A stretch of DNA of 64,000 bases from an uncultured Candidatus Rokubacteria bacterium (GTDB lineage Bacteria > Methylomirabilota > Methylomirabilia > Rokubacteriales > DASRDR01): the NCBI GenBank assembly GCA_963805625.1, contig CAWDVE010000011.1:1-64000 (forward strand). Reading direction: 5' to 3'. Positions 17,952-59,882 of this stretch are shown here, piece after piece. The notes under the pieces are model-generated. The model worked only from the letters and a program-made list of their open reading frames with translations. It had not been told where the DNA came from and ran no database searches. The translations under genes and the position numbers were made by a program. The stretch's first letter is position 1. The number at the start of each line of letters is the position of its first letter.

Positions 17952-18456
17952 CTAGGCGCCGAGGTCCTGCAACTCGCGAGTCGCGGTCTCAATCCGCTGA
18001 CGCAACCTTCCCAAACCTGGCCGCCATCCCGCGGCGTCCGCCTCCGCCTTCGCAATGTCACGTTCCAGCTGGCGGGCATCCGCTTCGTCGCGCGCGATGT
18101 GCTGGCGGAGCCTGAGCGGCCTGGTTGCGGATGGTGTCGATGGCCGCTGTCGCTGTCGTCACGTTGGCCTGTCGCCGTCGATGACGAGCTCCTGGGCGGC
18201 GATGTCCTTGCCCACCTCGGCCCGTTCGTGCTCGACGGCCGCCCGCTGTTCCTGAGCGGCTCGGATCGTTGCGCGGTCATCCGCCTGCTGCACGGTGGCC
18301 TGGAGCCGCTGGGCTTCCTGAGCCAGCTGTCGATCCTTGACCTGAAACGCGGCGAGTACGGTCTGTTCGTCGCGGACGGCACGCTCGGCCTCGGCGAGAG
18401 CTGCGCCTCGCCTTGGCCAGCGGGGTCTCGACGCTCTCTGTTCCTGTGGTGTCCAT
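17952..18456 (-). CDS. Coiled-coil protein, module copy A (frameshifted)
   Basis: Homologous to 56066-56584 (LAKAR, AAQ.LVI, GWR.GL motifs), spread over several frames. Confidence 0.65.
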
Positions 18457-19059
18457 CAATGATCTCCTCGCCTGGCTATGACCGGCGTGATCCGGTGGGC
18501 AAGGGCACGCCGGACCCCCAGCTCAATGCCGCGTCGAACGGCCTCCATCAGGTCGCGGGGCGGACCCATCGGAGCCAAGCCCAGGGCCTTGAGTTGCCGC
18601 GTGGCCTCGGCGTTGGCGGGAATGGCCACGAGCGAGATCTCCATGAGTTCCCACCGTCGATGGTCGTACCCTCGCGAGCTCATTGGGCGTGCTTTCGAGC
18701 GGCAGAAACCCGATCGACGCCGCCCGAATGATCCCCTGATCCCACGCGTTCTTGACACGGTCGGCAAACGGGTCGCCGGCCAGCCACCGCCACCGCGCCC
18801 GCAACCCGCGGCGCGGCTCCACGGTCAGCTGGGTCACGGTCCCGATCGGCAATGCGTAGGCATCGTGCCCCCACAGCAGGACGGGGTTACGCCGGAAGCG
18901 ATCCAGTTCAACGCCCTCGGGCAATATGCGATCCCCTTCGGAGTCGCGCCCCGATGTGCTCACCACCATCTCGGCCTCGGCGGTCTTCACGTCGCCAGGC
19001 ACGGTGGCCGTGACCGTATCGACCACGATCCGCTGCAGCAGGTCCGCTGTGGTGTTCAT
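18456..19059 (-). CDS. HK97-type prohead protease, copy A (frameshift ~18675)
   Basis: RDSEGD, NPVLLWGHD, ASIGF, ELMEISLVAIPAN. Confidence 0.88.
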
Positions 19060-19170
19060 CCCTTGGTCACCATCCTTTCGAGGACAGTTCGGTCGGGATG
19101 CGGCCGGAGGCTTGCGCGGAGTCCGAGGCTTCCGCGGCTTGCGTTTCGGTTTGTCGGGAGACTTCGGCAT
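19060..19170 (-). CDS. Small Lys/Arg/Pro-rich peptide, copy A (in frame with protease in this copy)
   Basis: MPKSPDKPKRKPRKPRTPRKPP after GAAAGGAG RBS; conserved in copy B. Confidence 0.55.
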
Positions 19171-19195
19171 CACGGATCGCTCCTTTCTCGCTGCG

Positions 19196-20710
19196 CTACC
19201 CAGTGGTCCAGCCACGGGCGGTCCACAGGGCGAAGCGTTGACGCTGCTCGAGTTCCGCCCACTCGTCGCGTGTCCGGACGGGGGCGGGGTCCGGGTTCAG
19301 GTCCAGGACGGCCATGGGCAGGCCCGAGGTGCGCCGCCGCGCGGCGAGGACCAGCGCCCCGGCGGCGGCATTGGCCAGGTCGTCGTGCGCTCCCGGCGGG
19401 TGGTCGATCGTGTCGCGGCCGGCCCGCCCTGTGCGGCGCTCCAAGCTGCAGAGCTGGGTCACCAAGCGCGGGTGGTCCAGCAGCGCGACCTGCTGCGAGG
19501 TGATGAGGGGCAGCAGGTCTCGGTACAGATCGGAGCGTGGGGTGTCGGCCACCTCGTAGGCGATGCCGTGCCGGCGGAATGCCTCGCGCGGCCACTCGCC
19601 CGCGTAGCGATCGCCGACGACGGTCGTGACCTGGTACGTCGACAACAGCCGGGCGAAGTCCTCGACCACCGCTTCGGGGCTGAACGGGGGCCGGTGCTCG
19701 GCGACGGCGTCGAGCACGACCCGTCGATCGTCGGAGTGCGTGATGGCGAGGGTCATCGCGTCGGCGGCCCCGCCCGACGGATCGACGAACGCGATGTACT
19801 GCACGTCCGACCGCGGGGCACGTTCGCGGCAGTCGACGTCGACGCAGGCGTCGATCGCCTCGCGCGTGAGGAATCCTTCGATGTCTCGTCGGAACTCCGC
19901 CCCGTACTCGGCGGCGGCCGCAGCTTCGTCAGCAGCATAGGCGGCCCGCACCACGGCCGCATCCAACTGGGGGTTCATGACCCGGGACGGCGCCTGCCAG
20001 ACCAGGACCGGGTCACCCTCCTGGCCGTAGTGCTGCCGATAGGCCTCCCACAGCGCCCCACGGCGCGCGTAGGGCGAGCTGATGCACAAGAGCAAGGCGC
20101 CCGGCACCGTGGCCATGGCGGGACGCAGGGCGGCGAGGATCTCGGTGTCAGGGTTGGCACTCTCGTCGGACCGCCAGAAGGCGATCTCGTCGCAGATCGC
20201 CGCGGCCACCGTGTACCCCCGCACGGCCCGGAAGGACGCCGTGTGCACCTCAATCGTGACGCGCGAGGTCAGGTGAATGGCTTCGGCGGTGCGGCGGTGA
20301 ATGAGGGGCCGCAAGAGCGGCGTGCTCTCGAAGAAGCCTGCGATGTAGCGGAGTACCACCCGGGCCTGGCGTCGATCGGCGGCAATGACCATCACGGTCG
20401 CTCGCTCGCCCGGAGCCAGCGACGAACGATAGTCCCGGAAGCAAGCGAGGTACACCGCCACGAGGGCGGCGATGCGGGACTTGCCGCCCCGGCGGCCCAC
20501 GGCCAACCACGCCTCGCGGGCCGGGGTGGCGGGCCACGTGCGGCGGCCCGTGTGGGCGCCGTACCGGTCGGCATCATCGGGCGCGGGCGGAAGCGCGAAG
20601 AGCGCCCGGAGTACAGTGCGCCAGGCCGTCCAAGTGTCTCGGGGCGCGAACGTGCCGGCGAACAGCTCTGGATCGTCCAGAATGTCGAGAATGGTCATGG
20701 CCATGGCCAC
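19196..20710 (-). CDS. Phage terminase large subunit, copy A
   Basis: Walker A GRRGGKS, Walker B AAICDE, coupling motif ISSP, nuclease motifs FVDPSGG and HDDLAN. Confidence 0.88.
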   Translation of the reverse strand: MAMAMTILDILDDPELFAGTFAPRDTWTAWRTVLRALFALPPAPDDADRYGAHTGRRTWPATPAREAWLAVGRRGGKSRIAALVAVYLACFRDYRSSLAPGERATVMVIAADRRQARVVLRYIAGFFESTPLLRPLIHRRTAEAIHLTSRVTIEVHTASFRAVRGYTVAAAICDEIAFWRSDESANPDTEILAALRPAMATVPGALLLCISSPYARRGALWEAYRQHYGQEGDPVLVWQAPSRVMNPQLDAAVVRAAYAADEAAAAAEYGAEFRRDIEGFLTREAIDACVDVDCRERAPRSDVQYIAFVDPSGGAADAMTLAITHSDDRRVVLDAVAEHRPPFSPEAVVEDFARLLSTYQVTTVVGDRYAGEWPREAFRRHGIAYEVADTPRSDLYRDLLPLITSQQVALLDHPRLVTQLCSLERRTGRAGRDTIDHPPGAHDDLANAAAGALVLAARRRTSGLPMAVLDLNPDPAPVRTRDEWAELEQRQRFALWTARGWTTG

Positions 20711-20978
20711 CCCCGACGCCCGGCTAGCCGGGCTCTCCCTACCTCTACATGGGTCTGTATGGCCACCCGGGGCGCGTGTAGGGCCGGTGCGTGGCCCCCC
20801 GCCAGCGGGGCCAGGCGCCCGCCCAGCGCGGCGGCGAGGCCGGGGGGGTTACAAACCCGCCGCGTTTGGTGGCCCGTGGCGCTATCCTCATGGCGACCCG
20901 CGGCTTGACCCAAGAGCCGATCACCGTTCCACGGAACTCGGGGGAACTCCATGAAGCTGAAGCACGGGGGCTGATCCG

Positions 20979-21614
20979 ATGAGCGCTGGCTCCTCCACTC
21001 CGCTATTTGCTGCGCCCATTGCCGCGCCGGTCGAGTCACTGCCTCAGACGCTTCCGGCTTTGCTCGACGACGTATGGAGGCGCATCGTTGCAGGTCTGAA
21101 CGGTCGTTGGCCACCCTGGGCGCTACCAATGCTCGCCACGCTGTCGCCGCACGGGCCGCGTGCCCGGGTCCTCGCGTTGCGCAGCGTCGATCCCGCCGAG
21201 CGACTGTTCGTCTTCCACACCGACGCCCGCTCCGACAAGGTGCGAGAGTTGAGAGCGGATGGTCGCGTATCGGTGGTCTTCTGGGATCCTGGAGATGCGA
21301 TAGAGGCACGCTTTACCGGAACGGCGAGCGTGCATTGTCGAGACCACGTCGCGCGCGAGGCGTGGCAACAGGTTTCGCTGCTTCGTCGCATGGCCAGCGC
21401 GATCGAATACGCGCCTGGCGCCGTGCTCTCCGCGCCGTCGCGCTTTGATGCGCTTCCTACCACGGCCGACGACGATGTTGCGCTGAGTCATTTCGCGGTC
21501 GTGCTTATCCGCGCGACTGCGCTGGACTGGTTCTGGCTCGGCCCGGGCGATATGCGCCGCGCCTTCATCCATTGGACCGACTCCGGACCCTCCGCCGAAT
21601 GGGTCGTGCCATGA
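20979..21614 (+). CDS. Pyridoxamine 5'-phosphate oxidase-family FMN-binding protein
   Basis: LATL...PRARVLALR...FHTDARSDK; close paralogue at 44983-45615. Confidence 0.85.
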   Translation: MSAGSSTPLFAAPIAAPVESLPQTLPALLDDVWRRIVAGLNGRWPPWALPMLATLSPHGPRARVLALRSVDPAERLFVFHTDARSDKVRELRADGRVSVVFWDPGDAIEARFTGTASVHCRDHVAREAWQQVSLLRRMASAIEYAPGAVLSAPSRFDALPTTADDDVALSHFAVVLIRATALDWFWLGPGDMRRAFIHWTDSGPSAEWVVP

Positions 21615-21805
21615 GCATGTTCCATGGCGGCGCATGGCGCAGCACTCCTGCGCGTGTGCCCAGCTCCTTAGCCGGTTCTTAGCCGTTTGCATCCGGGGGC
21701 ACCCGGGGTTATCGGGGTAGGGTGGGCCCCCGGGGGCGGGCGTAAGTAGCGGCAGTGCCGCGGATTGCCGCGGATAGCCCCGCGTCGCGGGGCGCGGACG
21801 TGGGC

Positions 21806-21861
21806 CCTTAAAATCCGCTACGTCGCAAGATGTGCGCGGGTTCGACCCCCTCCCCCAGTAC
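21806..21861 (+). pseudogene. Degenerate 3' half of tRNA-Leu(TAA) (att-site relic)
   Basis: CTTAAAATCC anticodon arm, long variable arm ACGTC-GCAA-GATGT, GGGTTCGACCCC T-arm; no 5' half. Confidence 0.6.
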
Positions 21862-21903
21862 GAACTATCGCCGTCACTCACGACCCTGGCGGTCATGGTG
21901 CAA

Positions 21904-22293
21904 TCAACCCTCGAGCGCCCGCACTAGATGGCGCGATACCGTTGCGGGGCTGGTTAGGTTGAGTGTCTGGCTGACCTGGTCGGTGCCCGCGCGGGCGGTT
22001 GGGGTGGATGGGGTGGTTGCCGGGGGTATGGGGACCGGCCCAAGCCCGGCACACGGCACCGCGCCCCGTTGGCGTGATGGGGCGCCCCCTGCGGGCCCCT
22101 GGGGGGTCTCCCTTGTCTCCACGTAGCGGCCCGGGCACCACCCCCGTGCGGCACGAGCGTAGACAAGTAGAGAGGGCGCCTTGGCGCCCAGGTGGGGCAC
22201 GTAGCGCCGCCGTGGCCCGGCTGGCACGGCGGACATGCCAGTTAACCCGTTAACGGCCCTAACCGGCGGCAACGCCTCATGCCGTGTGTTCAC
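21904..22293 (-). CDS. Hypothetical Pro/Gly-rich protein between TerS-like gene and TerL, copy A
   Basis: GTGA overlap with upstream gene; homologue at 58802-59173 with frame-preserving indels. Confidence 0.45.
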   Translation of the reverse strand: MNTRHEALPPVRAVNGLTGMSAVPAGPRRRYVPHLGAKAPSLLVYARAARGWCPGRYVETRETPQGPAGGAPSRQRGAVPCAGLGPVPIPPATTPSTPTARAGTDQVSQTLNLTSPATVSRHLVRALEG

Positions 22294-22874
22294 GGCGAGG
22301 GACTCTCTGATTCGGAATCGCGTGACGTTGTCGTGTGCGCGAGAGACGCATCCCGGGAGCGTCCGGTTGGACTAGTGTCGGACGCGGTTCGATGCAAGAG
22401 ATATTCGCGCAGGTCCAGAGGCGCCGACGTGCGGCGTTCCAGACCCAACTGCCCGAGCAGCCGAGCGAGACTTTCGGCGAGGCGTTGACGTTGCTCCACG
22501 AGAGGCAGGAGTCGACCTCGAAGCCGAGCGCGCTTGATGATCAGCGTTGGCTGTGACATCAGAAATGCGTCTACGTGATCGAGGTAGAGCCGCGTGCGTA
22601 CGGCCATGTCCACCAGAGCGAGTCGGGCTGCCGAGATGGAGGGCTCGCCGCCGAGGTCGTCGAGCAACTCGCGACGGAAGTCGAGTAGGGTGCGTGCCGC
22701 CGTGGTGCGGCGGTCGATGGCGGCCAACCCCCGCACGGTCACGCGGCTTTTCAGGGCCCGTAGCCCCGTACGGGTACGGGCGGGTCCCCCCGGGGTACCG
22801 CCCGTAGCGCGGGTTTTGCGCTTTGTGGGCTCGGGGTTAGCACCTACGGGGGTGCTGGCGGGTGGGTTCGGCAT
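22290..22874 (-). CDS. Putative terminase small subunit-like protein, copy A
   Basis: IDRRTTAAR...DLGG...SAARLALV helical core; position upstream of TerL. Function inferred from position. Confidence 0.6.
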   Translation of the reverse strand: MPNPPASTPVGANPEPTKRKTRATGGTPGGPARTRTGLRALKSRVTVRGLAAIDRRTTAARTLLDFRRELLDDLGGEPSISAARLALVDMAVRTRLYLDHVDAFLMSQPTLIIKRARLRGRLLPLVEQRQRLAESLARLLGQLGLERRTSAPLDLREYLLHRTASDTSPTGRSRDASLAHTTTSRDSESESPSP

Positions 22875-22927
22875 GTTAGGCCGCCTTCACCCGCCCCCGT
22901 AGGGGTACGGTCAAGCTAAAGCGGGCG

Positions 22928-22973
22928 TGGCTCCAACGGGATTCGAACCCGTGTTTCAGCCTTGAGAGGGCCG
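22928..22973 (-). repeat. att site: 46-bp exact duplicate of the 3' part of tRNA-Glu(CTC)
   Basis: TGGCTCCAACGGGATTCGAACCCGTGTTTCAGCCTTGAGAGGGCCG identical to 59808-59853. Confidence 0.95.
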
Positions 22974-23149
22974 CGCGCCACCTGACGGGGATTCGCTGAA
23001 CTGAGTCCGCGTAAACCCGCGAAAACAGCGTCGGAAGCGGCTCTGAGCGCACTGATAAGCATCACAATCCTGAAACAGCGCGAGTGCCCTCGAGCGCCCT
23101 CGAGAACCCCCGAGCGCCCATCGCAATGGCAACAAAGTGGCAACGGCCC

Positions 23150-23706
23150 AGCCCGTGACGAGCTGGCTGCGGACGCGGGCTCGCGGTCGCCGGGACGGCT
23201 GCCGTGGGCCACGTTGCTCCGCCGCGTGTTCGCGATCGACGTCCTCGTGTGCCCGCGCTGTGCCAGCCGCGCCGGATCCTGGGCACGGTGACCGAGCCCC
23301 AAGCTGTGCGGCGCCTGCTCGGCGCGCTCGGGCTGGCGGCCCAGCCGCCGCCGGGACGGCCCGGCTCCGCCGCCTGACCTCCCGCGCGTCGATCGCGCCC
23401 CCCCGGCGCCGCCGGTCCCGTCTGCTTGCCCATCTCGCGGACGACGTGCGGGCCGATCTCTCCGCCGATCTCTCCGTCCGCCCGATGCTCCGCGGCGGCC
23501 GTTGCCGGGCGGGCGGGGGCGGCGCTACAGTCTGGGTGCGAGCGGCCAAGCCGAAGCGGGCGATGCGGGGCCAGGGAGACGACGAGAAAGTATCGCTAGC
23601 GTTTCCTACGTTCTCCGCGGCGGCCGAGGGGGCCGGCATGACGGGGGGCGGGCAAGGGGGCCGGGGTAACGGGGCCGAGAAACGTGCCTAGCGCTTCCTA
23701 CGTTCT
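23150..23706 (+). mobile_element. IS91-family 3' remnant with duplicated oriIS-like end
   Basis: PWATLLRRVFAIDVLVCPRC..RILGTVTEPQAVRRLLGALGL; imperfect repeats CGAGAAA...CTAGCG(T/C)TTCCTACGTTCT at 23583-23614 and 23676-23706. Confidence 0.75.
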
Positions 23707-23821
23707 GGGTCGACTCATCCTCCGTGGTAAACGCGACGCTCCCAAACTCCGTGCTTGAAGGCTCTTCTCCCTGAACTCCCTCACGCCCGGCAAGGTAGAC
23801 GACTACCCGGCTGCCGAGCGA

Positions 23822-25318
23822 TCAGCGCTTGCGCTTCGCGACGGGCTTCCTGCTCTTGCGAGCGGCGGGACGGCGGCGCGGCGCCGCCACTAGGCTGGCG
23901 AGCACGGCGCCCACACGCTTTCCCGATGCTTTCCCGAGGTGCTGGCGAACCGTCGCGAGATCGCGGCGGATGGCGCTGGACGCGGTCCGATAGAGTGCGT
24001 CCACGAAACCCAGCGCACGGGTCACGTCGCGATCGCTCACGATGGCGGCGTCGTCTTCGAGCAGCGCCTGCGCCCGCTCGAGCAACCCGGCCGCCTCGCG
24101 CGCGAGCGACTCGTCGGCGAGCACCTTCGTGAGCAGCGGCGTCTGCACGCGCTCGAACAGCGCGATCAGCTTGCGGCCCGCAGTGGTTGTCGCTAGACGC
24201 TGATCCCGTACGTTGCGCACCGCGGCCACCCGGGATCGAGCGAGCGAGGCCCCGATGACCTCGATCGCGCAGACCGACTGCTGCAACAGGGAAAGGATGC
24301 CAGCTTTGGTGTCCCGTTTGATGAGCGTCGGGTCGGCGGGATGGAACGACTCGGCCTCGTTTCCCGTATTCGGACCGGTTTCGAACGCGAATCCGTACGT
24401 CTTTCGAAGACCGGGATTGGCAATGTGCCTGCTGTAGACGTAGTCGGTACTGGTGCCTGTGGCCGCATAGACGATGTCGTGGATCGTCCCGGTCCTGTAG
24501 GTCCGGCCCCGCACCGCCTTGATGTCGTCGGCAATCTGCCTGGCCACCGCTTCGTAGCGCCGCTTGTCCCGTGGCGTCATGTATTCCTGATGGCCGGAGG
24601 GATTCAGCGGCGCACACGTTCCTGTCGCGAGGCTCGTGAAGCGTTTGGTCGGGTCGTTGGTCTGGGTGCGCGTGTGACCCCACGGAAACATCACGAGCTC
24701 GCTGTACGAATGAACGTCCAGGTACACGTTCACGTGATGCGCATCGCAGAAGGCCCTGATGTTCAGCGATTCGGGCTCCGAGAAGCGCGCCGTCCCACAG
24801 TATTGGATGCTGGCGGGGAAGCAGGACGTGTTGGGATTGGTCACGCCCCACACGATGTCGGAGTTGCGGTTGGTGTCCACGCCGTCCTTGTCATCCGGAG
24901 TGTCCGGGTGGTCCCGGCGATTCTTTCGCCATAGGTCGTCGACGGTCTGGCAGTATTCGCGGCCGTCGGGGTTGGCGCACGGCAGCGTCCACACGTCCAG
25001 CGACTCGAGCATCACCCGGATCTCGTCCGCCGACCAGCGCCGGTTGCCGAACCTGAGGCCCGTCTCGTTCAGGTAGGCCTGCACCAGGCCAAGCTGAAGC
25101 TCGACGATCGCATCCGGATTCATCAGCTCGCGGGCGTGCATGCCTCCGACGATCAGGACGGCGCGCCGGTTTGTGGCGGTGCCCGCATGAATCCTGAGCG
25201 CGAAAATGGGCCGGCCCAGCACCGAGCGGTGCGGCAACTCTTCTCTCGTACAGATGTCCGGGAAGAAAGTCGCCAGAAACTGCATCACCGAGTCCAGCTG
25301 TGCGACCGTGCGATACAT
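23822..25318 (-). CDS. M14 zinc carboxypeptidase with C-terminal extension
   Basis: GGMHARE, NPDG, WRKNR, GVDTNRN, DVHSYS. Confidence 0.9.
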   Translation of the reverse strand: MYRTVAQLDSVMQFLATFFPDICTREELPHRSVLGRPIFALRIHAGTATNRRAVLIVGGMHARELMNPDAIVELQLGLVQAYLNETGLRFGNRRWSADEIRVMLESLDVWTLPCANPDGREYCQTVDDLWRKNRRDHPDTPDDKDGVDTNRNSDIVWGVTNPNTSCFPASIQYCGTARFSEPESLNIRAFCDAHHVNVYLDVHSYSELVMFPWGHTRTQTNDPTKRFTSLATGTCAPLNPSGHQEYMTPRDKRRYEAVARQIADDIKAVRGRTYRTGTIHDIVYAATGTSTDYVYSRHIANPGLRKTYGFAFETGPNTGNEAESFHPADPTLIKRDTKAGILSLLQQSVCAIEVIGASLARSRVAAVRNVRDQRLATTTAGRKLIALFERVQTPLLTKVLADESLAREAAGLLERAQALLEDDAAIVSDRDVTRALGFVDALYRTASSAIRRDLATVRQHLGKASGKRVGAVLASLVAAPRRRPAARKSRKPVAKRKR

Positions 25319-25342
25319 CAGGCGTCCTCTCGTGCGCGTACG

Positions 25343-25717
25343 TTACTGGCCGGACCGTTTGATCTTCGTCAGTTCGGCGTCGATCCAGCGTCGAAAGGAT
25401 TCGTCGGTTTCGATCAGCGAGGGGTCGAGCGGTTGGATGGGATGTGCGTAGGTGAGATGGAGCTCGAGTCCGTGCTCGAGCACACGCACGCAGTCGTCCG
25501 CGGTGAGCAGGGCTCGAATGGTGCCTCTGGTATCGGGCAGGCGGTCGATCGCCAGCCGCGTGAGCAGATCGTCCGTCAGGGCCTCGCGTCCCGCGTGGAT
25601 CGTCGCCTGGAAGCGGACCGCCCCGCCCGACGTTTCACGAGTCGGCGTGGACGCGTCTCGTGGCCCCTGTCCCAGGCGTTTCGTACTTCGCCGAATCTTG
25701 CTTTTCCGGGCGGCCAT
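25343..25717 (-). CDS. Hypothetical protein upstream of M14 peptidase (possible separate pro-domain)
   Basis: ATG with GGAGG RBS; directly precedes the peptidase. Confidence 0.6.
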   Translation of the reverse strand: MAARKSKIRRSTKRLGQGPRDASTPTRETSGGAVRFQATIHAGREALTDDLLTRLAIDRLPDTRGTIRALLTADDCVRVLEHGLELHLTYAHPIQPLDPSLIETDESFRRWIDAELTKIKRSGQ

Positions 25718-25748
25718 ATTGTTGCGCCTCCGAGGCCGTGCTGCGTGC

Positions 25749-26072
25749 TTACGCGAGGTGGGCGCGGATCTGGCGGTTGAGCCGGTGACGCTCGCGCCTG
25801 ATCCGGTGCAGCGCATCGCTGTCGTGCGCGACCAACGCTTCATCCCGCTGTTTCTTGAGATCTCGCATCTGCTGCTTGATGGCCGGCTTGTCGATGCCCG
25901 TGGCCATGTGGTGGTCCATCGTATCGATGCCGAGCGCCTTGCAGATGGCCGGCAGCAGGTGGTCCTTGTTCATCTGCGAGTACCCCTGCACGGCCTCGTG
26001 CTGGAGCCCCTTCGCCATGTCGCGCAGCTGCGCGACTGTCATCAGCTTCAAGTCATGGTACGTCGGCGCCAT
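25749..26072 (-). CDS. Rho-N-terminal-like small helical protein
   Basis: DLKLMTVAQLRDMAK...GYSQMNKDHLL; GGAGG RBS. Confidence 0.7.
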   Translation of the reverse strand: MAPTYHDLKLMTVAQLRDMAKGLQHEAVQGYSQMNKDHLLPAICKALGIDTMDHHMATGIDKPAIKQQMRDLKKQRDEALVAHDSDALHRIRRERHRLNRQIRAHLA

Positions 26073-50316: not shown

Positions 50317-50319
50317 CAC

Positions 50320-51774
50320 CTACCTCACGCGGGTGAAGACCTGCACCGGGTCGTCCAAATCGAAGTTGAACGGAACGAAGAGCTGTTGAGACTCGTCTAG
50401 CCTCGGGTTCGAGAATCGAACCGAAATCTGCGGCCCCCCGTCGAGAATGGGTTCTCGGCTGAGAAACCCCAGTTTGCCCTGATAAACTAGCGTGAAACGA
50501 AGGTTCCGAAACTGCATCAAGAGTTGGTCCCCGTTGGCACGAACCGTGAGCGGCCCGTACGCGCGATGCTCGTATCTTCCCGCCACCTTGCTCAGCGGAA
50601 AGTCGAGCGGGACGGCAGGGACATCCTGCAACGGTGGCTGCGTTTCTTCGACGAGTCTCGTCTCCCAGTCGAGCGGCTCGAGCCCTAGAAGGTGATCATA
50701 GGCGCTGTAGGCAAGCGCCATCAGAGTCGCGGTCGCGACATCTCGGTTCATCAGGAGAATGAGCCCTTGTCCCGTTTCGGGAAGAAACCCCAGATGCACC
50801 GTATAGCCGTCGATGGCCCCGTTGTGGACCACCAGGGGATGGCCGCGGTAGCTTTCGTGAATCCACGCCAAAGCGTAGTAGGGCTGCTGGACTTCGGGCT
50901 GGTCCGGCGCCGGCATTTCCGCTTGCGGGCGATGAAGGTCACGCCAATGATCCTCCCCGAGAAGACCCGGTGATCTCGTCGCGTGAAATGTGAGCCAGCG
51001 GGCGAGATCCCGTACGCTCGAGCTCACGGCTCCGGCGGGCGCGATGGCACTCAATTGTTTCAGCATCGGTATTTTTTGTACGCTCCCCTCGTGAATAGCA
51101 TAGGGGGACGCATGATCGGAGTCGGTCGCCATCTCTTCCGCCGAAAGGACGGTGCGTCGCATTTTGAGGGAAGAGAGTATCCGGGCCTGCACGAAGCTCT
51201 CCCAGCTCTCGCCGGTGACTTGCTCGACGATGCGACCGGCGACGACGTACATCAGGCTGTTGTACCGCCACTGCGCGTGAGGGGGGCCGGCGGGCTCGAG
51301 GAAGCGAAGGCGGCGGTAGAGCTCATCTCGCGAGAATGGCGCCTGGTACCAGAAGAGATCATGCCGCGGTAATCCGCTGCGGTGGGTGAGAAGATCCCGC
51401 GTCGTCAGGGTCGCCGTCGCCACCGGATCTTCGAGGGCAAAGTCGGGAAGGTAAGTGCGTACGGGAGAGTCGAGCGCGATTTTTCCCTCGTCCGCAAGCA
51501 GAGCGATCGCCGTCGCCGTGAAAGCCTTCGAACAGGATCCGAGAGCAAAGAGCGTGTCGGGCGTTACTGGTAGGTGAGTGTACGCGTCGCGGTAGCCGAA
51601 GCCGCGGGCGAAGACGAGGCGCCCCCGCTCGACGAGTCCCACGGCCAAGCCCGGAATCTGGTCGCGTGCCATGAGACGGCGGACAAGGGGCGTAAAATCG
51701 TCGGACAACCCCGATGCACCTTTTGCCTCGAGTCCGAGAGGCAAAAGGCAAATGGCCACGAGGGGCGGGCTCAA
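50320..51774 (-). CDS. Beta-lactamase-related serine hydrolase; 5' end abuts or is interrupted by IS256
   Basis: SCSK, LLTHRSG, YNS, HNG. Confidence 0.88.
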   Translation of the reverse strand: MSPPLVAICLLPLGLEAKGASGLSDDFTPLVRRLMARDQIPGLAVGLVERGRLVFARGFGYRDAYTHLPVTPDTLFALGSCSKAFTATAIALLADEGKIALDSPVRTYLPDFALEDPVATATLTTRDLLTHRSGLPRHDLFWYQAPFSRDELYRRLRFLEPAGPPHAQWRYNSLMYVVAGRIVEQVTGESWESFVQARILSSLKMRRTVLSAEEMATDSDHASPYAIHEGSVQKIPMLKQLSAIAPAGAVSSSVRDLARWLTFHATRSPGLLGEDHWRDLHRPQAEMPAPDQPEVQQPYYALAWIHESYRGHPLVVHNGAIDGYTVHLGFLPETGQGLILLMNRDVATATLMALAYSAYDHLLGLEPLDWETRLVEETQPPLQDVPAVPLDFPLSKVAGRYEHRAYGPLTVRANGDQLLMQFRNLRFTLVYQGKLGFLSREPILDGGPQISVRFSNPRLDESQQLFVPFNFDLDDPVQVFTRVR

Positions 51775-53156
51775 GTCCGAGCCTTGCTGGATAATCTGAC
51801 GGGGGACGCACTCACGGTCGGGCGAACCGCCGGAGTGGTGCGCTCGGCGTGAGCCCGGTCCAATTCGGCGCGAATCGCCTTGAGCTGCCGCCGCTCGAAC
51901 TCGCCGACGGTGAGACCCCGCCAGCGATCGGCCGCGCGGATCACCGCGGCGTACATGAGCTTCAACACCGGCCGTTCGCCGAAGACATGGGGGAGGACCT
52001 TGGTGCGGCGCCGTTCCTCGCCGAAGAGGCGCTCAAGAGATTCGTGGTCCGGATGACCTTGCGGTGCTGGAGCGGAAACCGCAGGTGGGCGACGCATGCG
52101 TCAAAGTCCTCGAGGAAGCAGCGGACGGCCGCGGGTAGGTCCCGCTCGTAGGTCTGCACGACATCGTCCCGGAGCACGGCGGCCAGGCGGGCGACGCGGC
52201 CTCGTAGCAAGCGCGGGCGCGGAGGCCACCTCCGGCCAGGTCGCCTCCGGCACCTTGCCACGCAGGTTCCGCATCCGATGGGCCAGGCAGCGTTCGCGCA
52301 GCGCCCGCGGGAAACACGTCTCGACCGCGCGAATCAGCCCCGGCGCGCCATCGGTCACCGTCAGCAGCGGGTCCGGCAGGCCCCGGCGCTTGAGGTCTTC
52401 GAAGAAGGCGGTACAGCTTGCGGTGTCCTCCTTCGTGCCCGATGCCAGATGTAGCAGCACCTTCCGCCTGTCCTCGGTGATCCCCCAGGCGCAGAGCACC
52501 GCCTCCCGCGGCATCCCGGCATGGAGCCGCTCGGCGACGCCATCGACGAACAGGTAGGCGACCACGAACTCGCTCAGGTCCCGGGGTGGCGAACGCTTCG
52601 TATTCCTGCCACAACCGCTCCGTCACCTGACTCACGGGCGTCCGACTGAGGAGGGGCTGCCCGGCCGGCCCCTGGAAGGCCGCCTCGATGTCCCGAGTGC
52701 TCAGACCGCGCGCGTACATCTCGACGGCCAGCCGTTCGAGCTCCGCCGTGCGCCCGGGCAGACGGGCGCGGATCCGCGAGACGAAGGGATCGGGCCGATC
52801 AGCCACCTGGGAGACTCCATACTCGATGCGGCCTTCGCCCGTCTGGAGGCGGCTCCGGCGGTACCCATTGCGGTAACCGGTCCCGGGGGCTGCGCCGTTC
52901 TCGTAGTACCCGCGGCCCAGGACCTCACTGACTTCGGCTTCCAAGGCCTCCTCCACGATCTTCCGCACCGCCAGCTTGATCAGCTCGGTCTGGTCATGCT
53001 ACGCCCTGCCCCAAGAACTCCTGCAGCCCCTGGTGCGTCTGCTCCGACGCGGGTACCCTCTGTCCCATCGGGGATGCTCCTCTCGGCGTCTCGGGTTTCG
53101 AGTTCGAAGCAAGAGTGCATCCCCCATCTGTTTTCCAGTAAGTCTAGGACTTCACC
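51769..53156 (-). mobile_element. IS256-family element (frameshifted transposase ~51771-53068)
   Basis: YRNGY, MYARGLSTRDI, YLFVDG, VTDGAPGL, RCLAH, IRTTN; imperfect IRs TCAAGTCCGAGCCTTGCTGGA / TCCAGTAAGTCTAGGACTTCA. Confidence 0.9.
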
Positions 53157-54100
53157 CGGTGCGGCGCCAGGAGCGGCTCTAGTTGCCTTGGTGCTGCGGG
53201 CTGCTCCTGGATTTCCTCCGGGATCTTTTCGGGAATCAGAAAGAGACAGCCCGTCAGGAGAATCATCACGCTCGAAAAAAAGACGAGCCCCATGCAAAGA
53301 GCAATGCCCAAATGCAGTCCGATCGTCGCGAAGCCCCAGATCTTCCGGGTGCGGCGTAGACAGATGAAAAACGGATAGCCGATCTCCACCACCAAAGTGC
53401 CCCAGCCAGCGAGCATCGGGATCAAGGAATACTTCGCGAGCCAGCTTAGATCGAAAGTGCTAAAGGCGGGTTGAGAAATCACCTGCCAGATTGCCTCGCC
53501 GTTCCACCATTGTCTCCCCATTGCTTTATCTAAACCGGCGGCAAAATAGATGACGCAGAGGTGGACTTGCATCGCCCTCAGACAACCGACTGGAATCGTG
53601 TCCTCTCGGTCGGCGGCGGCAGGACGAGACGCGAACGTCCAGGCACGCCCGGACGGAAAGAGAAAGAGATAGAAAAGGAACGTATTGGCTAACTGATCCA
53701 CTCCATAAAAAGAAGCAGAACCGCTCGTCATGAGGCTGCGGTGAAGGCCCCATACGAGAAACGCCGCGAGGCGGGTGTGAAATCCCAGTGCGAGACTGAG
53801 GAGGCTTCCGGCGTAGCTCGAGAGCAAAAGGATAATGGCGGTGTGCGTACTGATGCCGAGAGGCAGAAAGGCCTTAGCTAGAGTCGGGAGGCCTGGCACC
53901 CAAGGATCACGCAGCAGGTCCGTGAGCTCCCAGGGAATGATTCCCCGACTGCCGTGCAGTGCGAGGATATCGCTCGAGAGCCAGACCAGATGAATGAGCA
54001 GCAGCAGCGCCAACCCCACTCTGAGTCCCGCGAGTGGGCGAGCCGACACCGGCCGAAACCACGTGTCGCACTCAATGCATCGGTAATTCCACGACCTCAT
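53144..54100 (-). CDS. HTTM-domain membrane protein (SdpB / gamma-carboxylase-like)
   Basis: LALGFHTR, QVHLCVIYFAAGLDK...WWNGEA, LHLGIALCMGLVFFS. Confidence 0.8.
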   Translation of the reverse strand: MRSWNYRCIECDTWFRPVSARPLAGLRVGLALLLLIHLVWLSSDILALHGSRGIIPWELTDLLRDPWVPGLPTLAKAFLPLGISTHTAIILLLSSYAGSLLSLALGFHTRLAAFLVWGLHRSLMTSGSASFYGVDQLANTFLFYLFLFPSGRAWTFASRPAAADREDTIPVGCLRAMQVHLCVIYFAAGLDKAMGRQWWNGEAIWQVISQPAFSTFDLSWLAKYSLIPMLAGWGTLVVEIGYPFFICLRRTRKIWGFATIGLHLGIALCMGLVFFSSVMILLTGCLFLIPEKIPEEIQEQPAAPRQLEPLLAPHRVKS

Positions 54101-54600
54101 GGCTGGCTTCTCTTTGTGCGCACGAACGTCGCGTCGTTCAGCACGCGCCACCGCGGCCGTACCCCCGCGCGGTAGTCGGCCATCGTGGGCATTACCCACT
54201 CCTCGATATTCACCTGCACATGGCTCGCTTCAGGATGTGCGCCGAAGCTACTCGCCGCGAGCGCACCGAGAAACGCCCGTCGCAGGTCGGTGCGCTTGGC
54301 CGCGATATAGATTGTTCCGGCGAGATTTCCGAGACGGAAGCCGACCTCGCGACTCTTCCCGGTTTCCAGTGTTTCCTCGGAGCGTTCTCCCTGCGGCGAA
54401 GAAAGGATAAACCGAGCGCGCAACTGGGGACCTACCGTCGGAGCGAAGAAAGAATAGGAGTCGCCAGCACCCGACAGTGCACTATAAAAGCGAAGTCCTC
54501 TTCCTACAGGCCCATGCACGTTTGAAGTGAGATGAGCGGCCCCTGCGACGACGAGCGCGATGTGGCAACTGAAAAAACCCACCAAGAACATGCGTTGCAT
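54097..54600 (-). CDS. HTTM partner protein (SdpA/DUF5819-like)
   Basis: N-terminal TM containing His, YSFFAP motif; ATGA-coupled to the HTTM gene. Confidence 0.6.
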   Translation of the reverse strand: MQRMFLVGFFSCHIALVVAGAAHLTSNVHGPVGRGLRFYSALSGAGDSYSFFAPTVGPQLRARFILSSPQGERSEETLETGKSREVGFRLGNLAGTIYIAAKRTDLRRAFLGALAASSFGAHPEASHVQVNIEEWVMPTMADYRAGVRPRWRVLNDATFVRTKRSQP

Positions 54601-54647
54601 GCGTCGTTTGCCTAGCACAGGGGCTCCACCCAATCCGATCTATCCCA

Positions 54648-54760
54648 CACCACGCACCTGGTGTTCGACCCCCTCGAACTGCTGGAGAAGCTCGCCGCCC
54701 TGACGGCCCGGCCAGAGATCAATTTGCTCATCTATCATGGGGTCCTGGCCCCGCACGGTG
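54648..54760 (+). mobile_element. IS91-family transposase fragment
   Basis: TTHLVFDPLELLEKLAALTARPEINLLIYHGVLAPH. Confidence 0.85.
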
Positions 54761-54914
54761 CAGTGACATTGTGCATCCTTTCGTCAAATACCTGCAATCT
54801 CGAGGTTGGGCGAATCGCCGATGCGACCCCGTGAGCGACGATGGCGACCCTGCACCCCGTCCTTTGTGGCGGCGCGAATGGCGTCGGTGTCGAGCACCGC
54901 AGGATCGAGCTGCG

Positions 54915-55019
54915 GTGGCCGACGGCTCGACCGCGCTGCTCTTGGAGCCGTTGGAGTTGCTCGAGCGCTTGGCGGCCCTCGTGCCGCCGCCGCGCCGGCC
55001 CTTGCTCGCGTATCACGGC
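54915..55019 (+). mobile_element. IS91-family transposase fragment (second subtype)
   Basis: DGSTALLLEPLELLERLAALVPPPRRPLLAYHG. Confidence 0.8.
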
Positions 55020-55116
55020 TTCAGTCTCTTCTCAACTTGATCGGACGGCCTTCGGCCTGTGGCGGCCTGTGGGCGAATCGGAGGCGCAGCGACCACGTCG
55101 CGCGCAAGGAGTGCGG

Positions 55117-55578
55117 ATGGACTCGCTGATCTGGACGGGCAACTGGGCGTGGGGCGTGCCCCTGATCGTGCTGACCTCGGTGGTCCACGTCCTCGGGCTC
55201 AGTCTCATTAACGACGCGGTCACGGGTGCGCTGGTTCGCAGAGCAGCCCGCCGCCAATTCATGGCGATGTTTGCGGCAGCCCTCAGCCTGACGGTCCTGC
55301 TGGTCACGTCGCTTCACGCCCTCGAGGCCGCAATCTGGGCGGTCGCATACCGTCTTCTCGGTGCCCTCCCTGATGCCAAGGCCGCGATGCTCTACTCGGT
55401 GAGCGCGCTGACGACCTACGGGCACGCCAGCGCCCTCCTTCCGGAGCACTGGAGGATGCTCGGGGCCCTGGAGGCTCTGAACGGGATGATCCTGTTCGGT
55501 TTGACGACGGCGTTTCTCTTCGCCATGATCCAGGAGGTCTGGCGACCCGGCAGCCGGCCCGGGCACGTGCTTGCATAG
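55117..55578 (+). CDS. Small ion-channel (Ion_trans_2-like) membrane protein
   Basis: LYSVSALTTYGH...WRMLGALEALNGMILFG. Confidence 0.8.
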   Translation: MDSLIWTGNWAWGVPLIVLTSVVHVLGLSLINDAVTGALVRRAARRQFMAMFAAALSLTVLLVTSLHALEAAIWAVAYRLLGALPDAKAAMLYSVSALTTYGHASALLPEHWRMLGALEALNGMILFGLTTAFLFAMIQEVWRPGSRPGHVLA

Positions 55579-56065
55579 GTTTCGCCCGCGGAGGGGCACG
55601 TCGCGGCAGTGATGGTCCCAAGCCTGGGGCGCCTGCGCGTTGAACTCGATGCGGAACCGCCCCGTGCAGGGTGGGTGATAGCGGGCCGGTGGAAATAGTG
55701 ACCGGTGCCGAGAATAGCAACCCGTCCTCTCCGTGGTCCCGTTCCCTTCAAGACATGCGCGCGCTCTGCGCTGGCGTTTCTGTAATAAAGGTGCTTCCCG
55801 CGAATCGAGATTCCGAGCCGAACGGGTTCTCTTTTAAACGGTTTTCCTCAGAAAATCCCCCGCCGGCCAATGCTCGCGCCCAGGCTGCGGCCGATGCGTT
55901 TCAGACTCGGCCAGCCGTGGCGTCTGGCAGCCGGGTGCTTCCAGTACCACCTCGGGCCGCAGCCGGTATTTCCAATCCCGTTACCTTCAGAGTTCCCCAG
56001 CGTCCTTCCTCGTACACCAGGCTTAGGATCGGGCTCAGTGATTCCAAGAGCTCTCGGCAACTACC

Positions 56066-56584
56066 CTAAGTCCCAAGCTCCCGCAGCTGGCTCGACGCTG
56101 CTGCGATCCGCCGATGCAGCACGGCGAGCCCTCGTCGCCACCCTTCCACATCGGCCTCGGACCTCGCGATGTCCCCTTCGAGCTGGCGTGCTTCCACTTG
56201 GTCGAGGGCGATGCCTTGGCGGAGGCGGAGGGCCTGGTTCCGGATGTCATCGATCGCCATCGTCGCGGCGGTCACGGTGGCCTTCCGGCGTTCGATGACC
56301 AGGTCCTGGGCGGCGATCTCTTTGGCCAGGTCGGCCCGCTGGGTGTCGATGGCGGCCATCCGCTCCTGGCCAGAGCGAATGGCGGCCCGATCATCTGCCT
56401 GGCGCAGGGTGGCGTGCACGCGCCGGGTTTCGAGGGCCAGCTGTTGATCCCGGGCGTGGATCTCGGCCAGCTGTGCCTGTTCATGCCGAACGGCATGCTC
56501 GGCCTCGGCGAGCACCAGCCTCGCTTTGGCCAGCTGGGTGTCAACGATCGGCGGTGTCGTCGTCGTGGTGGCGTCGTCCTCCAT
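56066..56584 (-). CDS. Coiled-coil protein, module copy B
   Basis: ~172 aa, heptad-like helical; GGGAGG RBS. Confidence 0.75.
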   Translation of the reverse strand: MEDDATTTTTPPIVDTQLAKARLVLAEAEHAVRHEQAQLAEIHARDQQLALETRRVHATLRQADDRAAIRSGQERMAAIDTQRADLAKEIAAQDLVIERRKATVTAATMAIDDIRNQALRLRQGIALDQVEARQLEGDIARSEADVEGWRRGLAVLHRRIAAASSQLRELGT

Positions 56585-57302: not shown

Positions 57303-58805
57303 CTACTCGGTCCACCACCCGCGCCCCGTCCACAAGGCGTGGCGTTCGCGCCGCGCAAGCTCCGCTAACTCGGCGGCCGTGTTCGGCGCGGCGGGGTCCA
57401 GAATGGCCATGGGCAGGCCCGAGGTGCGCCGCCGCGCCGCCAGCACCAAGGCCCCGGCGGCGGCATTGGCTAGGTCATCGTGGGCCCCCGGGGGGTGATC
57501 GATTTGGTCGCGCCCGCCACGGCCGGTGCGGCGCTCCAAGCGGCAGAGCTGGGTCACCACGCGGGGGTGGTCCAGTAGCGCGACCTGCTGCGAGGTGATG
57601 AGGGGCAGCAGGTCCCGGTACAGATCGGAACGCACCGTGTCCGCCACCTCATAGGCGATGCCGTGCCGGCGGAATGCCTCGCGCGGCCACTCGCCGGCGT
57701 AGCGATCGCCGACGACGGTCGTGACCTGGTAGGTGGACAACAACCGGGCAAAGTCCTCGACCACCGCTTCGGGGCTGAACGGGGGCCGGCGCTCGGCCAC
57801 GGCGTCGAGCGTGACCCGTCGATCGTCGGAGTGAGTGATGGCGAGGGTCATCGCGTCGGCCGCCCCGCCCGAGGGGTCGACGAACGCGATGTACTGCACG
57901 TCCGGCAGCGGGGCACGTTCGCGGCAGTCGACGTCGACGCAGGCGTCGATCGCCTCGCGCGTGAGGAATCCTTCGATGTCTCGGCGGAACTCCGCCCCGT
58001 ACTCGGCGGCCGCCGCACTCTCATCGGCGGCATAGGCGGCCCGCACCACGCCTGCATCCAACTGGGGGTTCATGACGCGGGACGGCGCTTGCCAGACCAG
58101 GACCGGATCACCCTCCTGGCCGTAGTGCTGCCGATAGGCCTCCCACAGCGCTCCGCGGCGTGCGTAGGGCGAGCTGATGCACAAGAGCAACGCGCCTGGC
58201 ACCGTAGCCATGGCGGGGCGCAATGCGGCGAGAATCTCGGTATCAGGGTTGGCGCTCTCGTCGGAACGCCAGAAGGCGATCTCGTCGCAGATCGCCGCGG
58301 CCACCGTGTACCCGCGCACGGCCCGGAAGCTTGCGGTGTGCACCTCGATCGTCACGCGACTAGTCAGGTGAATGGCTTCGGCCGTGCGGCGCTGAATGAG
58401 CGGCCGGAGGAGCGGGATGCTCTCGAAGAAACCTGCGATGTAGCGGAGTACCACCCGGGCCTGGCGTCGGTCGGCCGCAATCACCATGACCGTGGCTCGC
58501 TCGCCCGGAGCCAGCGACGAACGATAATCGCGGAAGCATGCGAGGTACACCGCCACGAGGGCGGCGATGCGGCTCTTCCCACCGCGTCGGCCAACGACGA
58601 ACCAGGCTTCACGTGCCGGTGTGGTCGGCCAACTGAGACGGCCAGTATGTGCGGTGTAGACGGCGACATCGTCGGCCGTCATGGGCAGACCGAATAGCGC
58701 CCGGAGCACTGTCCGCCACGCCCTCCAGGTCTCGTGAGAAGTGAACTGGCTGGCGAAGAGGTTGGGATCATCCAGGACGTCAAGGATGGTCAGCGTGGCG
58801 TTCAT
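57303..58805 (-). CDS. Phage terminase large subunit, copy B
   Basis: Same motifs as copy A; ATG at 58805; intact 500 aa. Confidence 0.9.
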   Translation of the reverse strand: MNATLTILDVLDDPNLFASQFTSHETWRAWRTVLRALFGLPMTADDVAVYTAHTGRLSWPTTPAREAWFVVGRRGGKSRIAALVAVYLACFRDYRSSLAPGERATVMVIAADRRQARVVLRYIAGFFESIPLLRPLIQRRTAEAIHLTSRVTIEVHTASFRAVRGYTVAAAICDEIAFWRSDESANPDTEILAALRPAMATVPGALLLCISSPYARRGALWEAYRQHYGQEGDPVLVWQAPSRVMNPQLDAGVVRAAYAADESAAAAEYGAEFRRDIEGFLTREAIDACVDVDCRERAPLPDVQYIAFVDPSGGAADAMTLAITHSDDRRVTLDAVAERRPPFSPEAVVEDFARLLSTYQVTTVVGDRYAGEWPREAFRRHGIAYEVADTVRSDLYRDLLPLITSQQVALLDHPRVVTQLCRLERRTGRGGRDQIDHPPGAHDDLANAAAGALVLAARRRTSGLPMAILDPAAPNTAAELAELARRERHALWTGRGWWTE

Positions 58806-59173
58806 AGCGTGGCCATGCCGGCACGCTGGGCGGGAAGGCGGGAAACGTATGGGCGCGGCGGGCCGACCGTGGTGCCGCACCCCCGGGCGGTTGGGGTGGA
58901 TGGGGTGGTTGCCGGGGGCACACGGGCCGGTCCACGCGCACCGCACGGCACCCCGGGGTGGCGTGGTGGGGCGCCCCCTGCGGGCCCCTGGGGGCTCTCC
59001 CCCGTCTCCACGTACCCGGCCGGGCACCCACCCCATGCGGCAAGAACGTAGACAAGGCGAGAGGGCGCCTTGGCGCCCACGTAGCGCCGCCGTGGCCCGG
59101 CCGGCACGGCGGGCGTGCCGGTTAACCCGTTAACGGCCCTAACCGGCGGCAGCGCCTCATGCCGTGTGTTCAC
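58802..59173 (-). CDS. Hypothetical Pro/Gly-rich protein coupled to TerS-like gene and TerL, copy B
   Basis: GTGA overlap at start and ATGA overlap at stop. Confidence 0.5.
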   Translation of the reverse strand: MNTRHEALPPVRAVNGLTGTPAVPAGPRRRYVGAKAPSRLVYVLAAWGGCPAGYVETGESPQGPAGGAPPRHPGVPCGARGPARVPPATTPSTPTARGCGTTVGPPRPYVSRLPAQRAGMATL

Positions 59174-59754
59174 GGGGTGGCTCTCTCTGATTCCGAATCG
59201 CGTGAGGTCGTCGTGGGCGCGAGAGACCCATCCGGAGGTTGTGCTGTTCGAGTAATGTCGGACGCGGTTCGACGCGAGAGATATTCGCGCAGGTCGAGAG
59301 GCTCCGGCGTGCGACGTTCTAGGCCCAACTGCCCGAGCAGCCGAGCGAGACTCTCGGCCAGCCGCTGCCGTTGCTCCACGAGGGGCAAGAGTCGACCTCG
59401 AAGCCGAGCACGCTTCATGATCAGCGACGGCTGCGACATCAGGAATGCGTCGACGTGATCGAGGTAGAGCCGCGTGCGCACCGCCATCTCCACCAGAGCG
59501 AGTCGGGCTGCCGAGATGGAGGGCTCGCCGCCAAGGTCGTCGAGCAACTCGCGACGGAAGTCGAGTAGGGTGCGTGCCGCCGTGGTGCGGCGGTCGATGG
59601 CGGCCAATCCCCGCACGGCCACGCGGCTTTTCAGGGCCCGTAGCCCCGTACGGGTACGGGCGGGTCCCCCCGGGGTACCGCCCGTAGTGCGGCCTTTGTG
59701 CTTTGGCAGCTCGGGTTTAGGCCCTACGGCGGGGTTGTGGGGCAAGGTCGGCAT
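59170..59754 (-). CDS. Putative terminase small subunit-like protein, copy B
   Basis: 194 aa; core nearly identical to copy A; upstream of TerL. Confidence 0.6.
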   Translation of the reverse strand: MPTLPHNPAVGPKPELPKHKGRTTGGTPGGPARTRTGLRALKSRVAVRGLAAIDRRTTAARTLLDFRRELLDDLGGEPSISAARLALVEMAVRTRLYLDHVDAFLMSQPSLIMKRARLRGRLLPLVEQRQRLAESLARLLGQLGLERRTPEPLDLREYLSRRTASDITRTAQPPDGSLAPTTTSRDSESERATP

Positions 59755-59807
59755 GCTAGGCCGCCTTTACCCGCCCACGTAGGGGTACGGTCAAGCTAAA
59801 GCGGGCG

Positions 59808-59882
59808 TGGCTCCAACGGGATTCGAACCCGTGTTTCAGCCTTGAGAGGGCCGTGTCCTAGGCCGGGCTAGACGATGGAGCC
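59808..59882 (-). tRNA. tRNA-Glu(CTC)
   Basis: GGCTCCATCGTCTAGCCCGGCCTAGGACACGGCCCT-CTC-AAGGCTGAAACACGGGTTCGAATCCCGTTGGAGCCA cloverleaf. Confidence 0.95.

Follow-up and report, generated by a model that had tools for sequence, protein, structure and literature searches.

A packaging cassette repeated at tRNA-Glu in a Candidatus Rokubacteria genome points to probable satellites that carry their own terminase

The 64,000-nucleotide stretch of DNA analysed here (the window; contig C11, positions 1-64000, of genome G000 from an uncultured Candidatus Rokubacteria bacterium; genome 99.9% complete, 6.3% contamination) contains two copies of a phage-type DNA-packaging cassette, A and B, each beginning next to tRNA-Glu sequence (Table 1). 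Copy A (56066-59754) is intact and encodes a small terminase subunit (TerS), a doubtful open reading frame (ORF2), a large terminase subunit (TerL), a basic peptide, an S78 prohead protease and a long helical protein. It lies beside an intact tRNA-Glu gene, and copy B beside a repeat of the 3' half of that gene; this attachment-site (att) repeat comprises 47 identical bases with the C that follows the discriminator, 46 without that C, and bounds the interval 22927-59853. An earlier reading of the DNA made without database searches (the sequence-only reading) placed the start of both cassettes 53 bp after the tRNA gene or its 46-bp copy, and the spacing from tRNA end to TerS start is indeed equal in A and B (52 bases from the end assigned by ARAGORN, 53 from that assigned by Rfam). 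The same reading saw one six-gene cassette twice, which is true of A, whereas B is damaged: an insertion of 1.3 kb cuts the TerS and ORF2 side off from TerL, and five single-base insertions or deletions (indels) fall in the peptide, protease and helix genes.

TerL and the protease had been named correctly from the letters, and profile searches recognize both (Table 1). TerL keeps the residues that are invariant across 58 aligned relatives (G72, R73, G76, K77, D310, D367, D443 and D444), which we take to be the Walker A and nuclease acids, that is, the ATPase and nuclease motifs. In the protease, His65 is invariant among the aligned relatives and Ser115 is kept; by HK97 numbering these are presumably the catalytic positions. 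Among the best 150 protease relatives, 138 are no longer than 350 amino acids (aa), with a median of 254 aa, and four reach at least 450 aa, so the window protease stands alone like most of its kin. The gene upstream of TerL is likely TerS, as the sequence-only reading supposed, judging by position, language-model features and predicted fold, lines that are each weak singly. Its family lies directly upstream of TerL in 94 loci, it scores 0.91 against the Terminase_4 cluster of the Atlas in the language-model comparison, and its structural model (pLDDT 79) has HK97 TerS as top match in the PDB (8pop; Z 7.3, root-mean-square deviation 3.5 over 87 residues), tied with an unrelated chain. Seven of the ten best rows in BFVD are named TerS, none at E<=0.001; Pfam and PHROG return no match, and the PDB sequence search with the TerS profile reaches only E 0.006. 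Searches of IMG/VR with TerS and with the protease gave no confirmed relative.

The remaining products are less readily placed. The helical protein is modelled by AlphaFold as a single helix (pLDDT 92 on three sequences) and has two homologues at 74-77% identity; it matches no family in Pfam, PHROG or the Atlas (best Atlas score 0.85), and on the model it is a candidate scaffold-like factor. A basic peptide similar by eye to that of copy A precedes the protease in a related element (L171, described below). ORF2 in copy A overlaps each neighbour by four bases, and its two indels between A and B keep the frame; set against this, it has no homologue in the 132 other loci searched and the highest ratio of nonsynonymous to synonymous divergence (dN/dS 0.57) in the cassette, and therefore it stays doubtful as a real gene.

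Table 1. Features of the two cassettes, their tRNA-Glu ends and the DNA between them, in window positions.
Feature	Position	Strand	Basis or remark
tRNA-Glu(CTC), intact; left junction of copy A	59807..59882	-	ARAGORN; Rfam gives 59808-59882
Conserved ~53-bp element end, from tRNA 3' end to TerS; imperfect inverted repeat	59755..59806	-	Motif shared with G008, G009, L153
TerS, copy A (likely small terminase subunit), 194 aa, helical core 38-143	59170..59754	-	
ORF2, 123 aa, G/P/A/R-rich; gene or cis-acting DNA	58802..59173	-	
TerL, copy A (large terminase subunit), 500 aa	57303..58805	-	PHROG 2 E 1e-22; PHROG 9
Basic peptide, 37 aa	57170..57283	-	
Stand-alone prohead protease, S78/HK97 type, 190 aa	56598..57170	-	PF04586 35.1 bits, cut-off 21
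Helical protein, 172 aa; one continuous predicted helix 12-171 (160 residues), ~24 nm	56066..56584	-	
Cargo stretch from A module to att copy, 33 kb, no recombinase found	22974..56065	.	Pfam and profile searches
TGGCAAC-N4-TGGCAAC direct repeat; likely integrase arm site of right junction (putative role)	23127..23144	+	
att copy: tRNA-Glu 3' half from the anticodon stem	22927..22973	-	Exact repeat
TerS, copy B, intact, 83% identical to A	22290..22874	-	
Insertion in B between ORF2 and TerL, ~1.3 kb replacing 80 bp of A	~20710..21991	.	
PNPOx-like gene inside the B insertion	20979-21614	+	
TerL, copy B, reading frame intact, 502 aa	19196..20704	-	
Basic peptide and protease, copy B, each frameshifted; protease break near 18680-18710	18501..19173	-	
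Helical protein, copy B, three single-base indels	17952..18456	-	

Copies A and B share two blocks (56130-59853 against 18016-22973), with 88.4% identity over 982 bp and 80.7% over 2695 bp, and similarity fades at the stop codon of the helix gene, where the sequence-only reading had drawn the limit. The TerL proteins are 90% identical at a synonymous divergence (dS) of 0.43, in keeping with its description of near-identical proteins that differ at many synonymous sites. Five of the six genes give dN/dS values between 0.08 and 0.35: 0.08 for the TerS core (0.45 for whole TerS), 0.16 for TerL, 0.11 for the basic peptide, 0.11-0.14 for the protease and 0.21-0.35 for the helix blocks. None of these five is near 1, the value that the earlier reading had set against its own proposal, and selection on the module was, by this comparison of coding sequences, purifying. 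The value of dS rises from 0.2 beside the att site to about 1.2 in the protease and helix genes. The five indels of copy B are probably real, since only one of the 22 core genes matched in G000 (23 queries) is split; no reads cover the damage, however, as public sequencing runs contain at most 27% of the words and their contigs miss these frameshifts. The PNPOx-like gene within the insertion is 90% identical to window positions 44943-45643, where its duplicate is placed at 44983-45615. A further homologue of it lies near TerL remnants in locus L033, and a third, partial TerS homologue (45% identity) occurs in G000 at C3:5732-5965 (L035) with no TerL nearby.

The sequence-only reading recognized no capsid, portal, tail, primase or integrase gene, and no capsid, portal, primase or integrase gene was found in the window by the searches described here. 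The major capsid family PF05065 has no match anywhere in G000 (control matches in 4/14), nor has the portal family PF04860, and translated searches of the genome with capsid queries and with portal queries of four families were empty. The PHROG and Pfam scan of the module ORFs revealed no capsid domain; these general scans likewise showed no HNH nuclease or head-tail connector among the module ORFs, no dedicated family search having been made for the last two. Tape-measure queries matched neither window nor genome. Integrase domains PF00589 and PF07508 occur at 24 and 6 places in the genome, none of them within C11 1-64000, and queries for primase and for AlpA-type regulators taken from related loci gave no credible match in the window. 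A weak integrase match at 48377-48472 (E 0.005) was rejected; by eye it sits in a remnant resembling a dipeptide transporter.

Homologous loci were the place where the sequence-only reading had expected capsid and portal genes to appear if the cassettes were deletion remnants, and such genes are not routine there. Searching with TerL gave 359 confirmed matches in GTDB, from which 80 loci were kept, and 37 matches in IMG/VR; among 41 close genomes, eight contain TerL matches, many of them broken. Gene maps were made with a codon-score gene caller, and annotation covers 86 of 150 family representatives. The typical order is integrase, Xis/AlpA, primase, TerS, TerL and then variable small genes. 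TerS is present in 77 of the 80 GTDB loci, a tyrosine integrase in 56, a serine recombinase in 2, a primase in 47, a tape measure in 14, a DUF2213 or related protease in 7, a capsid in 3 and a portal in none; the positive counts include self-matches, and the portal queries (four families) were taken from IMG/VR loci. Sixty of these loci have at least 6 kb on both sides, and 32 of them combine recombinase, primase and TerS with neither portal nor capsid; integrase and primase are both missing from five well-flanked loci. Of the 87 large ORFs listed as unassigned, 82 were scanned with PHROG: portals occurred in IMG/VR loci alone (L036, L046, L047 and L051), L086 and L100 gave capsids, and L148 gave a Mu F-type head protein. 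In L086 (11508-12641), L100 (9139-10125) and L134 a major capsid gene directly follows TerL, with no portal. Alphaproteobacterial members (L075, L076, L116, L127, L130, L099, L104 and others) carry DUF2213 with tape-measure or lysozyme-bearing proteins; being devoid of capsid and portal, their gene content suggests hijacking of tails or of ejection.

Several relatives are complete elements bounded by att repeats: L169 (13.1 kb), L023 (12.3 kb), L022 (13.5 kb), L084 (11.4 kb) and L094 (10.7 kb). Direct att repeats at a tRNA, a trait of phage satellites, are found in the window and in these sisters alike. When 251 genomes of the class were searched for the protease, six matched. In L169 (G062), helicase, TerS candidate, TerL, protease, helix, helix-turn-helix (HTH) and integrase genes lie between tRNA-Pro repeats. 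L171 (G228), cut on its left by the contig end, reads two excisionases, TerS candidate, TerL (frameshifted), helix, basic peptide, protease, helix, HTH, integrase and tRNA-Thr, and L023 (G015) holds primase, TerS candidate, TerL, helix and integrase between tRNA-Cys repeats, with no protease. Unlike the window, the sisters contain integrase domains (PF00589 and PF07508 were tested); the scanned ORFs of L169 and L023 show no capsid or portal domain. Small ORFs resembling ribosomal protein S21 occur at L171:7180-7377 (Pfam E 5e-4, below the cut-off) and L023:6973-7230 (by eye). Since the TerL proteins of L169, L171 and L023 are far from that of the window, what is shared is the build more than close kinship. 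In a FastTree phylogeny, mostly of open forks, from which L082 (being a duplicate of L021) and every TerL shorter than 390 aa other than L171 were left out, the nearest neighbours of the window TerL include L049 (primase, TerS, ORF, TerL, protease, helix) and L133 (TerS, TerL, helix, protease). The IMG/VR contig L053 (7034-13369) has a shuffled form of the module: TerS, helix, protease, TerL, HTH, integrase, tRNA-Arg.

The TerL search also led to Rctr16k (KX853514.1, L259), a 16.7-kb sequence with integrase, Rep, DnaC, TerL, helix, Mu-type protease and tape measure, the regions of interest being 11526-15391 and 16-3018. We found no capsid or portal match in it and no exact terminal repeats in the deposited sequence. 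In the available text of the original report it is 'phage genome 5', a circular contig of depth 219 from a virus concentrate, for which no head proteins were annotated (PMC5099504). From its gene content, Rctr16k looks like a satellite of the window kind deposited as a phage genome, and its circle in a virus concentrate is the sole hint of packaging.

The sequences support taking the missing capsid and portal as characteristic of the family, because none of the 80 loci has a portal, complete att-bounded sisters exist and selection was purifying; on the same grounds the choice of the sequence-only reading, a selected architecture over random prophage decay, holds up. We think it likely, if well short of certain, that the cassettes are the packaging module of a widespread family of tRNA-integrated satellites that bring their own terminase and fill helper capsids. 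In favour of this, the nearest TerL from a cultured phage shares only 24% identity. As most relatives carry an integrase and a primase, the window copies are read as reduced derivatives, A non-autonomous and B decaying. The undescribed satellite class proposed earlier needs amending: the terminase is the element's own and we found no defining paper, but the lack of integrase and primase is a feature of these reduced copies and not the family norm. The dispatch of helper procapsids to the cargo island, here 37 kb long, which that reading also proposed, is hypothetical.

In a complete member, infection by a helper phage would be followed by excision and replication with the element's own integrase and primase. 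Its TerS would select a site on the element's DNA, and its TerL would dock on the helper portal and pump that DNA into helper procapsids, while the protease and the 24-nm helix could be what the satellite itself brings for maturation and scaffolding, processing those procapsids or changing their size. Copy A could move only with recombinase and replication functions supplied in trans and may have lost mobility; copy B would be an older member in decay, which a later insertion pushed away from the tRNA end. If this is true, a foreign motor must dock on the helper's portal and the element's protease must act on the helper's procapsid, which would be a new route of hijacking and a natural test of terminase-portal specificity. 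What the window adds is a variant with protease plus helix, and a reduced form that is fixed at tRNA-Glu; the TerL family includes cultured strains, with loci in Methylobacterium, Shinella, Roseomonas and Pseudomonas, and is hence open to experiment now.

Several observations weigh against this interpretation. With integrase and primase both missing from the window, neither copy amounts to a complete satellite, and no helper phage was seen, PF05065 and PF04860 being absent from the genome. PHROG and Pfam could miss capsids or portals that have diverged very far. In phage contigs of IMG/VR, members of the TerL family at 28-56% identity lie beside portals (14 rows of the tree, together with L036 and L047), and the family therefore moves between phages and elements. 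The S78 protease is found in one of the 80 GTDB loci and in six of the 251 genomes of the class, where one case is a protease-capsid fusion of a prophage, and the helical proteins of the sisters are not detectably homologous but alike in kind only. Sixteen whole IMG/VR contigs have no exact terminal repeats. The TerL of Rctr16k is only 32.5% identical, over 159 residues, and its sample was, by the available text, DNase-treated only in part (PMC5099504).

A rival account, which we consider unlikely, is that a reduced lineage no longer excises or replicates, retains just TerS, TerL, protease and the scaffold-like helix, and works in place at the tRNA-Glu end. Headful packaging from the chromosome into helper procapsids would then move the downstream island array, a self-encoded device akin to lateral transduction. 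Both window copies point into cargo, and the junction of tRNA-Glu end, 53-bp motif and TerS recurs on G008 contig C75, on the soil metagenome contig L153 and, interrupted after 12 bases, on G009 contig C1; since it recurs outside G000 it is not peculiar to one assembly. The G008 TerS is 57% identical, so that the direct junction is old, and there TerL is intact with no primase or integrase in 8-9 kb. Five well-flanked GTDB loci are devoid of both genes. However, breakage, as expected of relics, affects copy B, the copy in G009 and several in G008, and the 53-bp end occurs at least five times in G008 without TerS; moreover, the dN/dS between A and B may date from selection that preceded loss of the left arm.

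Improbable, in our view, is an ordinary prophage that integrated twice and lost portal, capsid and tail by deletion. It would account for the decay of copy B, for the TerL family in portal-bearing phages and for a protease that resembles the N-terminal domain of protease-capsid fusions (PHROG 617). Yet TerL, peptide, protease and helix are so tightly packed that neither space nor scar is left for a portal, and elsewhere the protease has an intact relative of 192 aa and the helix has intact relatives too. The portal count of zero in the GTDB loci and att-bounded sisters that are complete but too small for a prophage also weaken the case for deletion. We give similarly little credence to anti-phage interference, in which an orphan terminase and protease would poison phage assembly through mis-cut DNA and mis-processed procapsids and be kept for host defence. 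The catalytic residues of both enzymes are kept, a type I restriction system shares the island array with the module, and published satellites interfere with their helpers, as the accessible part of one account has it (PMC9618062); but cognate TerS and TerL beside primase and integrase in most relatives suit self-packaging better. A chimera of two strains made in assembly, for which the 6.3% contamination and the failure of any public run looked at to span the region might be cited, is very improbable, as the copies diverge by 10-20%, show a dS gradient from 0.2 to 1.2, differ in their flanks and share an att-type repeat, and contigs from two other runs connect the tRNA half to DNA at 22974-23129.

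The tRNA-Glu gene is a hot spot, with 19 matches to the tRNA region in G000 and many across the genus. Serine-recombinase genes terminate at this site in G013, G008, G003 and on contig C10; in L246, L248 and L252 (G013, G003 and G000:C10 1973599-1975305) large serine recombinase genes seem to run through the reverse-complemented tRNA-Glu 3' end. By eye, the cargo of the C10 element resembles that of island A (GAF kinase, cyclase/TPR, ABC-binding). Paired TGGCAAC repeats number 12 in the genome, and seven directly adjoin tRNA-Glu 3' pieces; the pair in the window lies about 150 bp from the att copy, which fits a genuine right junction. The 46-bp copy may derive from copy A or from another element. 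Short att cores within A or past B gave five matches against 4.0 expected by chance, and the far end of B was not found; nor was a join of the C11 start to the C10 end, which would give one long tRNA-Glu array. Scattered tRNA-Glu 3' halves occur on contigs C10, C13, C14, C16, C17, C19 and C24 of G000, several after paired TGGCAAC repeats and one inside a groEL-like fragment (label by eye) at C10:2122870.

By Pfam, the cargo between the A module and the att copy includes a GAF histidine kinase, a cyclase/TPR protein, three ABC-binding proteins, methyltransferases, an M14 peptidase, a beta-lactamase-fold protein and insertion sequence (IS) remnants. A frameshifted Mutator-family transposase lies at 51771-52968. 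Repeated fragments at 16395-16541, 23249-23377, 49439-49735 and 54661-55040, two of which were scanned with no Pfam match, presumably resemble IS91-type transposase. Downstream of copy B are a type I restriction-modification operon (HsdM, HsdS, HsdR, YgjP; 8113-15627) with apparent frameshifts and, past B, a NiFe hydrogenase-type operon (1446-5666); an rve-domain transposase (60107-61354) lies upstream of tRNA-Gln.

Among known systems, HK97 has its portal between TerL and protease and its capsid after the protease. The TerS helical core aligns to the HK97 small terminase and the protease passes the PF04586 cut-off, but portal and capsid are missing from the window module. Rctr16k is alike in build: it is circular and carries an integrase, replication genes, TerL, a helical protein and a protease, and no capsid or portal was found in it. 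It differs in its distant TerL, Mu-type protease and tape measure, and in being described, in the available text, as a phage genome.

In the accessible portions of their reports, phage-inducible chromosomal islands of the capsid-forming kind (cf-PICIs) encode capsid, portal and head-tail connectors and take only tails from the helper (10.1101/2022.09.08.507074, PMC10085698). In common with the window family, they are small satellites that integrate and that carry an integrase, a regulator, a primase, TerS, TerL and a head protease; the window family has no portal and mostly no capsid, and would need whole stolen procapsids. The window itself has TerS and TerL, and the head protease in A (frameshifted in B), with neither capsid nor portal. 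As far as the consulted text goes, terL is listed as a component that separates cf-PICIs from PICIs, which use the helper's TerL (PMC10085698). Classical PICIs and the Staphylococcus aureus pathogenicity islands (SaPIs), as there described, share with the family tRNA integration, a size of about 10-13 kb, the order integrase, regulator, primase, TerS and the absence of a portal; they differ in that the family has its own TerL and the window copies also want integrase and primase. The window shows no integrase in cis and no primase or AlpA-type regulator, and it carries a TerL of its own, intact in both copies, where a PICI takes the helper's.

EPIPs of Mycolicibacterium are, by the accessible text, 11-kb satellites with TerS, scaffold and tape measure (PMC12822802). 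A tape measure is also present in 14 of the 80 GTDB loci, though not in the window or its genome, whereas neither TerL nor a protease stands in the EPIP gene list of that text, which gives a serine integrase, head-tail proteins and a major capsid protein (PMC12822802). Integrative mobile elements encapsidated in virions (VEIMEs) and PICI-like tycheposons are described as integrative elements packaged in helper capsids, tycheposons carrying cargo at tRNA sites (PMC9618062, 10.1101/2020.12.28.424599). Unlike the window family, they have, in the parts of these sources consulted, at most TerS or a capsid protein, and the large terminase is presumed to be the helper's (PMC9618062, 10.1101/2020.12.28.424599). 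The accessible text of archaeal satellite preprints does not describe the window class, and we found no paper defining satellites with TerL but no capsid or portal in a search outside which most subscription papers and supplements lay; the supplements of PMC9618062 or PMC10085698 could contain such elements. On this comparison, described satellites either borrow the helper's TerL (PICIs, VEIMEs, tycheposons) or bring a matched set of capsid, portal and terminase (cf-PICIs), and the window family, as its gene content is read here, fits neither.

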